A DNA stretch of 64,000 nt from an uncultured Clostridia bacterium (GTDB lineage Bacteria; Bacillota; Clostridia; Christensenellales; UBA3700), in contig CANSGN010000001.1 of the NCBI GenBank assembly GCA_947646415.1, positions 3,945-67,944 of the forward strand. The letters run 5' to 3'. The position numbers and the translations under genes were made by a program. How positions within the stretch are numbered: the stretch's first letter is position 1; each line of letters begins with the position of its first letter. The notes beneath the pieces were generated by a model that was given only the letters and a program-made list of their open reading frames with translations, was not told where the DNA came from and ran no database searches. This document shows positions 42,857 to 43,251 of this stretch, piece by piece.

Positions 42857-42915
42857 AATTAAGACAAAATATGTCTAGATTTTAATCAAATAAATTAATA
42901 ATCGATATAAAAAAT

Positions 42916-42955
42916 ACACCCCTAAACTTAATGTTTTGGGGTGTTACTTTTTATG
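42916..42955. terminator. bidirectional terminator hairpin of cassette 3
   Basis: acacccctaaac / gttttggggtgt (42916-42944), followed by tacTTTTTatg. It ends the upstream paralog. Confidence 0.7.
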
Positions 42956-43054
42956 TAAAGTTTAAAGTAGGCAAAAAGAGGTGTTCACTGCAATAATCCT
43001 ATCAAAAATCGGGACTATTGGGGGTAAAAATTTGCCTTTAATGTAAAGTTTGGG

Positions 43055-43229
43055 TACATGGAATAAATATATCTATGTACATATTATATGTATATTTTAA
43101 ACTAAAATGTAAGATAATGTCAACGTTATAGCAAAGGTTTTGTAAACTCTTTACTTTAAGCATACAAAAATTATATATTCAAACTCAAAAAATCCGTGAT
43201 TTTGTACATAGATATACTTATTCTATGTA
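43055..43229. promoter_or_regulatory. candidate invertible promoter segment (copy 3)
   Basis: Left IR at 43055-43081 and right IR at 43203-43229 enclose 121 bp. On the minus strand, TTGACA (43123-43118), 18-nt spacer, TAAAAT (43099-43094). Confidence 0.6.
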
Positions 43230-43251
43230 AGGTAAAAACGGAGGTTTTATT

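Follow-up and report, generated by a model that had tools for sequence, protein, structure and literature searches.

A probable promoter inverton, assembled in the off orientation, upstream of a dockerin lipoprotein gene in an uncultured gut Clostridia bacterium

Introduction

Promoter invertons are best documented in the Bacteroidales and a few pathogens. Bacteroides fragilis carries promoter segments with one inverted repeat (IR) consensus scattered upstream of its surface loci, and flipping of these segments by the global invertase Mpi turns the loci on or off. In C. difficile several short IR-flanked segments that precede surface-protein genes are flipped by one tyrosine recombinase, RecV, whose gene lies apart from most of them. 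These switches number a handful and have dissimilar IRs, and the cwpV and flgB switches carry no promoter, acting instead after initiation in a terminator- or Rho-dependent manner. The fimS element of E. coli, flipped by FimB and FimE, is a single 314-bp locus with 9-bp IRs, adjacent recombinase genes, and accessory sites near the IRs. The RecV-dependent switches (cwpV, flgB/flagellar and others) are described in PMC2784873, PMC5386303, and PMC5903667, and the invertible-promoter class has been surveyed with PhaseFinder-type tools (e.g., PMC8748976, PMC11602134).

Here, a 64-kb stretch of DNA from an uncultured Clostridia bacterium (the window) is analyzed, focusing on the third of its four switch cassettes (copy 3). 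An earlier note, made from the letters of the DNA, had proposed that this cassette preserves an outward-facing promoter within an invertible unit of fixed length. We consider it probable that copy 3 is a promoter inverton, mediating phase variation by DNA inversion and assembled in its off state. The device is of a known kind and its principle is not new. In the literature searched, no paper was found that links Christensenellaceae to invertons or to phase variation, or dockerin proteins to invertible promoters, and no description of such a device in this lineage or gene family was found.

Results

Anatomy of the copy 3 switch

The copy 3 switch is a 175-bp unit in which two 27-nt IRs, IRL (43055-43081, plus strand, TACATGGAATAAATATATCTATGTACA) and IRR (43203-43229, minus strand, TGTACATAGATATACTTATTCTATGTA), 93% complementary to one another, enclose exactly 121 nt (43082-43202). 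The coordinates given for these repeats and their interior in the earlier note were all borne out when the sequence was re-checked, and the G-to-A change it ascribed to the left IR lies at 43067, which is IR position 13. This A is unmatched in IRR, where position 13 is G. On the minus strand, the interior bears a -35 hexamer TTGACA (43123-43118), an 18-nt spacer, and a -10 hexamer TAAAAT (43099-43094), again as previously claimed. The element (43094-43123) matches the consensus at 11 of 12 hexamer positions and is, in silico, the best promoter-like site within 42700-43400. Transcription from it is predicted to start near 43087 and to run left, away from the gene, and from the hexamers we infer strong promoter activity on this strand. 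On the far side of the switch, an RBS (GGAGG, 43240-43244, plus strand) follows IRR by 11 nt and belongs to the putatively controlled gene, which encodes 737 residues (43252-45465, plus strand, ATG at 43252). Copy 3 combines the structural features of a promoter inverton, namely an IR pair, an internal promoter that in silico reads out through one IR, and a suitably placed gene.

The repeated cassette extends beyond the 42906-43251 interval first delineated, comprising an edge motif, terminator, leader, IRL, interior, IRR, RBS, ATG, and the first ~25 codons of the gene. The upstream edge motif TTAAGACAAAATATGTCTAGA (42859-42879, plus strand; family consensus AGCCnnnnnnTTTCT) stands right behind the stop codon of the upstream gene. 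Motifs of the AGCCnnnnnnTTTCT type are found ~190 nt 5′ of IRL in nearly all family members, with unrelated genes upstream, and mark the outer boundary of the repeated cassette here and at the equivalent spots in other cassettes. A terminator hairpin (ACACCCC...GGGGTGT, 42916-42952), with an A-run before it and a T-run after it, was identified by a terminator scan and by compensatory changes in its stem across 15 diverse family members. Between the hairpin and IRL lies a conserved leader of ~100 nt (42953-43054, plus strand).

Switch copies and neighboring genes in the window

The IR 21-mer occurs eight times in the window, as four pairs, versus 0.01 occurrences expected by chance. The remaining three switches, all on the plus strand, are copy 1 (4940-5114), copy 2 (39399-39573), and copy 4 (56980-57154), which lie upstream of dockerin lipoprotein genes encoding 986 (5137-8097), 1086 (39596-42856), and 1195 (57177-60764) residues, respectively. 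Each of the three likewise has 121 nt between these IRs. Two interior types are distinguished: copies 1 and 2 have type A, with a TATAAT -10, and copies 3 and 4 have type B, with TAAAAT. The promoter is aimed away from the gene in all four copies, which are therefore all assembled in the off state.

All four downstream products have a lipoprotein signal (LILGC), FNMYGG/GGG repeats, and a C-terminal type I dockerin. In the copy 3 product the repeats occupy the middle of the protein, and its first ~25 codons fall within the conserved cassette. NCBIfam holds no model for the four dockerin lipoproteins, and an exact-protein look-up found no record for the copy 2 gene product or for that of the gene upstream of copy 4.

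Several other loci in the window were recorded. An agr-like quorum-sensing set (34269-36948; LytTR response regulator, GHKL histidine kinase, AgrB) lies ~2.5 kb upstream of copy 2; it is preceded by a gene for an HTH protein (33862-34221), and a gene for a GLUG-motif protein (37301-39145) lies between the set and copy 2. At 26470-33117, three tandem paralogous ORFs of ~167 residues (26470-28142, repeats 77-84% identical) are followed by a 1654-residue protein that shows Listeria-Bacteroides repeats as well as internalin-like matches. The region resembles a further surface-protein locus, one without a switch.

A family of switches with a common IR

When one genome per species was scanned for the IR 21-mer, 52 stretches were recovered; with few exceptions they derive from MAGs of the mouse gut that carry the label Christensenellaceae or Christensenella. 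A scan of metagenomes yielded another 60 stretches. After de-duplication, 88 complete flanked switches were retained, with interiors of 121 nt (81 switches), 122 nt (4), or 120 nt (3). The number of switches per genome is about 23-24 in MGBC162486 and about 26 in MGBC121002; the GC content of the host MAG is 34%. In the family layout, a terminator, conserved leader, IR, promoter segment, IR, and RBS precede a gene for a lipoprotein that has a dockerin at its C-terminus. In the 79 classifiable switches (of 88), the gene with its RBS and ATG lies opposite to the promoter direction, with the leader and terminator on the other side. The tally of orientations in the assemblies is 79 off and one on, the remainder lacking one recognizable flank.

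Some members depart from this layout or from their expected context. L040 (CBFGCD010000030.1) is a 1.9-kb contig binned as Candidatus Gastranaerophilaceae that ends in a leader and IRL identical to those of the Christensenellaceae type, and is probably a binning error rather than a second host phylum. In L112 (1487-1946), a complete switch is separated from the RBS and gene by a third, degenerate IR (TACATGTATTAAGTATATCTATGTAAT), with 258 nt of GC-richer DNA between; such a three-site arrangement could permit two alternative inversions. At L053:5586 and L054:423 (also L058, L070, and L097), one gene-side flank is joined to differing interiors and leader-side flanks across contigs, which could reflect recombination between separate switches with a common IR.

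Contigs break in or at the switch cassette in seven of the ten assemblies of the copy 3 locus (L131-L140) and in two of ten at the copy 1 locus (L122-L123). The switch family thus fragments metagenome assemblies, and its under-representation in MAGs is likely. Contig ends at IRs were considered as a sign of mixed orientation and rejected, given that a ~400-bp multi-copy cassette breaks assemblies anyway.

Conservation and exchange of interiors

The earlier note described the copy 3 interior as strongly diverged from those of copies 1 and 2. This holds at 64-68% identity (ungapped, same orientation), but the same interior is 100% identical to that of copy 4, though the leaders of copies 3 and 4 differ. 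The possibility that the copy 3 interior is a flipped copy 1 or 2 interior was rejected, as the ungapped reverse-complement alignment gives 45% identity versus 64-68% forward. Across the three distinct interiors of the window, 75 of 121 columns are identical. The hexamers were rightly placed at constant offsets: the four window copies, and likewise all eight sequence clusters (57-83% identical to one another) into which the interiors of the family fall, have them at interior positions 13-18 and 37-42.

Interior types are not tied to loci. At the copy 1 locus, the window and L115 have type A, six other assemblies have type B, and L114 has a B-like variant. The copy 3 locus is of type B in the window and of type A in L131, L135, and L136. 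Such a distribution indicates that interiors are copied between loci, and that the apparent divergence represents two or more discrete promoter cassettes in circulation. The likely route is gene conversion through the conserved leader on one side and the RBS and signal-peptide arm on the other. Promoter cassettes of differing strength (TATAAT in type A, TAAAAT in type B) may be shuffled among loci. The identity of the copy 3 and copy 4 interiors and the swapping of types weaken the case that had been made against a recent duplication; the case for selection on the promoter is not weakened.

Comparing the eight clusters, 11 of 12 hexamer columns are invariant versus 45 of 121 columns overall (hypergeometric P = 7e-5). 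Further invariant blocks are AAAnGTAA (interior positions 24-31), TTTGTAA (58-64), TTTA (69-72), and ACAAAAA (82-88). The suggestion that alignment might find only the hexamers and the length conserved did not hold, many other blocks being invariant too; judged from these alignments, the hexamers are among the most conserved features of the interior, and not the sole ones. At the midpoint of the copy 3 interior, the invariant TTTGTAA-4 nt-TTTA block (43139-43153, plus strand) is possibly a site for a bending protein or an accessory factor. Type B interiors also contain a weak gene-facing TTTACT-18-TATATT element.

The conserved leader and terminator

The leader surpasses the invertible interior in conservation and contains three invariant blocks, TGTAAAGTTT (42954-42963), TGCAATAATCCTATCAAAAATCGGG (42989-43013), and ATGTAAAG (43041-43048). 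A TGTAA-like motif has two further occurrences inside the interior, in the same orientation. RNAalifold, applied to 15 diverse minus-strand leaders for RNA structure in the leader or off-state transcript, identified covariation in the terminator hairpin only, and the whole window gave no Rfam match at gathering thresholds. A small minus-strand ORF in the leader was considered and rejected, none being conserved between species types. The leader is probably protein-binding DNA, providing accessory or directionality sites for a very short recombination loop of 148 bp. The terminator is probably bidirectional, given its flanking A- and T-runs; it would shield the switch from read-through and, in the off state, halt transcription running leftward.

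A 31-nt sequence elsewhere in the window (25510-25540) is 81% identical to the leader block, with 17 exact bases (CAAAAATCGGGACTATT). This leader-like match sits inside a coding region, a GH31-like ORF (25054-26166), and was set aside. This ORF spans the first third of the GH31 domain only; a complete GH31 gene is found at 60935-62461 on the minus strand.

The conserved leader also includes TGCAATAAT (42989-42997), an extended -10-like sequence that faces the gene, and possibly holds a weak extended -10 promoter. The off state may for this reason not be fully silent. It could be argued further that this leader promoter, ~65 nt upstream of IRL, drives the gene and that the invertible promoter only modulates it, as a dial between low and high expression. 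The orientation assembled here would then result in head-on interference and low expression, and the flipped orientation in additive, high expression. Such a model, which we regard as improbable, agrees with the near invariance of TGCAATAAT and the following CTATCAAAAATCGGG, gene-facing in the leaders of both species types, as well as with the leader being more conserved than the interior and the weak gene-facing element of type B. The 79:1 orientation bias would also be easier to tolerate if the off state gave some expression. However, the -35 region of the supposed promoter differs between species types, and the conserved block far exceeds the length of a -10 element and is more suggestive of protein binding. 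An on/off promoter inverton is the preferred reading of copy 3.

The recombination site

Each IR is itself palindromic, with TACATAGA at positions 1-8, a 9-nt center, and TCTATGTA at positions 18-25 (TACATgGA, 9 nt, TCTATGTA in IRL of copy 3). It resembles a complete tyrosine-recombinase core site of two 8-bp half-sites and a 9-bp center, and at the sequence level the IRs show both the inverted half-sites and the center matching between partners that characterize such sites; loxP, FRT, and dif are examples, with inverted binding elements on either side of an asymmetric crossover region. IRL was compared with the reverse complement of IRR across 74 distinct cassettes. Central positions 12-14 co-vary between partners. 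At position 13, 57 cassettes have G in both IRs, 13 have A in both, and 4 are discordant (Fisher P = 1e-10, for copies that are related to one another); at position 14, 73 have T/T and one has C/C. Outer positions 1, 2, 6, 7, and 9, and position 27, vary independently between partners. The half-sites are unchanged in lineages having an 89% or 77% identical orthologue of the candidate recombinase described below, while the center changes in both IRs jointly; the central bases are AAGTA here, AAGCA in L124, and ACATA in L142. A concordant center is the pattern expected of a crossover region in which the partners need to match.

Crossover-region mismatches impair exchange in many tyrosine-recombinase systems. 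As the copy 3 IRs differ at position 13, in the putative crossover region, copy 3 could be slow or locked, and poor flipping of this copy is a possibility. Among strains, the A at position 13 of the copy 3 locus is found on IRL (L132), on IRR (L133, L137-L139), or on neither (L131, L134), which fits past exchange between the IRs, or replacement of the cassette. It is interesting to speculate that the G13 and A13 centers may act like heterospecific lox sites, limiting rearrangement across loci.

Inversion and orientation

Inversion is directly observed at one locus of a sister species. L050 (MAG MGBC121002, contig 11) and L101 (metagenome contig OFGN01001298.1) represent the same locus, with 395 of 402 and 398 of 400 flanking positions identical, and their interiors are exact reverse complements (121/121). 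Each IR's innermost base has switched together with the interior, placing the exchange inside the IRs. L050 is in the on state, reading TTGACA-18-TATAAT, 12 nt, IRR, AGGAG, and ATG, and L101 is off. A second contig, L088, displays a partial on state, beginning with the gene flank, an IR, and the promoter-proximal end of the interior. The 27-nt IRs are probably shorter than the k-mers that assemblers commonly use, in which case the assembled orientation should reflect real reads.

No flipped form was found in the species of the window. A 41-mer specific to its on state (leader end, IRL, and start of the flipped interior) had no match in metagenome contigs. At the copy 1 locus (rpsF-ssb-rpsR) all eight complete switches in other assemblies are off, as are all nine other assemblies of the copy 3 locus (adjacent to pyrB) that retain switch sequence; consensus assemblies cannot reveal minority orientations. 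Inversion of copy 3 itself is suggested by homology, through identical IRs, geometry, and promoter. Selection on a promoter in a fixed-length invertible unit, as put forward in the earlier note, is consistent with the IR-bounded near-consensus promoter, the invariance of its hexamers, and the homologue seen in both orientations; what tells against it is that no flipped copy was seen in the window's own species.

A candidate recombinase

No recombinase gene was found in the window by Pfam searches of ~40 ORFs, nor by phmmer searches of 1099 ORFs from the window and 112 loci with Hin, XerD, and FimB as queries. A Hin-like serine recombinase had no match among the 1099 ORFs, and only tyrosine recombinases were found near switches. 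The sole recombinases near any switch are orthologues of a 309-residue protein with Phage_integrase and SAM_3 domains (L005:6476-7405). The gene order is recombinase, metallophosphoesterase, then leader and switch. It occurs in at least three lineages, including those with orthologues of 89% and 77% identity (L124-L126, L141-L143), and also in L011 of the sister species, where the 159 residues that can be compared are 91% identical. The chromosomal context of the candidate is conserved (PI-PLC, recombinase, metallophosphoesterase, switch) and free of mobile-element genes. MGBC162486 carries a recombinase orthologue together with L031_22 and L031_3400, the counterparts of window copies 3 and 2, which places the candidate in the window's species or a very close relative. 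Synteny makes this tyrosine recombinase the candidate enzyme for the IRs.

Among solved structures, Tn1549 Int (PDB entries 6en0, 6emy, and 6emz; E = 3e-19) comes nearest to the candidate's catalytic domain. The NCBIfam model for tyrosine-type DNA invertases matched partially and only faintly, at 20.9 bits (E = 2e-4) where the cut-off is 222. Two further homologues were discounted as switch enzymes: one of 59% identity (P0023) is located beside relaxase genes, without IRs of this kind, and one of 74% (L144) has no switch nearby. At L005:2887-7405 (MGBC162486), the switch next to the recombinase-metallophosphoesterase pair lacks a lipoprotein gene, and a rarA/mgsA-type AAA ATPase gene lies 158 nt away.

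The evidence from orientation and from the recombinase bears on whether the cassette might be fixed in the window's species, its IRs being operators for a regulator, or the remains of a fossil switch, with the genes controlled otherwise. Zero flipped forms among about 55 copies of this species type and a 64-kb window devoid of a recombinase would be accommodated by such a fixed module. Yet perfect, identical IRs have been retained at ~24 loci and in more than one species, interior length is fixed at 121 nt, and the same IRs demonstrably invert in the sister species. The recombinase orthologue of MGBC162486 resides in a genome with counterparts of copies 3 and 2, and minority orientations would be invisible in consensus assemblies. 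We judge a fixed cassette quite unlikely, somewhat more so than the leader-promoter model. A non-functional dispersed repeat, MITE-like with terminal inverted repeats and located before paralogous genes by chance, would explain the high copy number, the terminal repeats, and the frequent contig breaks at the element, but is very improbable in view of the constant polarity (leader and terminator on one side, the RBS and ATG of one gene family on the other), the lack of target-site duplications, the retention of promoter hexamers while other bases drift, and the precise in-place inversion between L050 and L101.

Discussion

The reading we prefer, a promoter inverton, suggests the following mechanism for copy 3. 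A site-specific recombinase encoded in trans, most likely of the tyrosine type, would bind both 27-bp IRs, and strand exchange within them would flip the 121-bp segment. In the orientation assembled, TTGACA-18-TAAAAT would fire left through IRL and the leader into the putative bidirectional terminator, and the same terminator would block read-through from the upstream gene, leaving the lipoprotein gene silent. Once flipped, the promoter would fire right through IRR, giving a 5′ UTR of ~55-60 nt, to GGAGG and the ATG at 43252, and would turn on a dockerin-bearing surface lipoprotein.

With about two dozen switches per genome and one IR, a single recombinase could run a sparse surface repertoire that varies from cell to cell. 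That such a repertoire is mostly off across ~24 loci is a plausible assumption. In its fullest form, the proposal is that in uncultured low-GC gut Clostridia some 24 or more promoter invertons, nearly all of them off, may answer to a single tyrosine recombinase through one family of 27-bp sites and provide an antigenic-variation-style repertoire of dockerin-anchored, beta-helix-like lipoproteins. We advance it tentatively, as an idea somewhat more likely to need revision than to stand.

If confirmed, an uncultured Clostridia-type commensal of the mouse gut would possess a very large family of switches with a single IR, numbering about two dozen loci per genome and four in 64 kb, and would offer a natural case of one recombinase holding most of many identical switches off. 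The family would also open a route to understanding surface variation in a little-known gut lineage, and hence its evasion of immunity or phages. The compact site (8-9-8 in 27 bp) and 121-bp cargo would, if confirmed, be handy for engineering.

Individual features of the switch have counterparts in several known systems. As in fimS, an invertible segment carries a sigma-70-type promoter for an adjacent surface gene, and fimS is flipped by a tyrosine recombinase, the class of the candidate here. Unlike fimS, the present switches have full core sites of 27 bp as IRs and a 121-bp segment, and they occur at many loci; moreover, the fim-type adjacency of recombinase and switch is absent in the window, where the four switches have no recombinase ORF nearby. 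The candidate recombinase resembles Tn916/Tn1549-type integrases in its pairing of SAM_3 with Phage_integrase and in the match of its catalytic domain to Tn1549 Int, but its gene, unlike theirs, occupies a conserved chromosomal context without mobile-element genes. The RecV system of C. difficile is similar in having a Clostridia host and a tyrosine recombinase acting in trans (here a candidate), a resemblance of logic only. In contrast to the RecV switches, about two dozen are present here, with one 27-bp IR and a consensus promoter on the segment.

The arrangement of the loci resembles the Mpi system of Bacteroides fragilis, in which many chromosomal promoter segments likewise have one IR and presumably, in the present case, one trans-acting recombinase. 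However, Mpi is a serine recombinase, and the candidate here belongs to the tyrosine type. The IR sequence is unrelated to that of the Bacteroides system, and each genome has more copies (about 23-26) of a shorter segment (121 bp). The host MAG is of low-GC Clostridia type, and the targets are single dockerin lipoprotein genes in place of polysaccharide operons.
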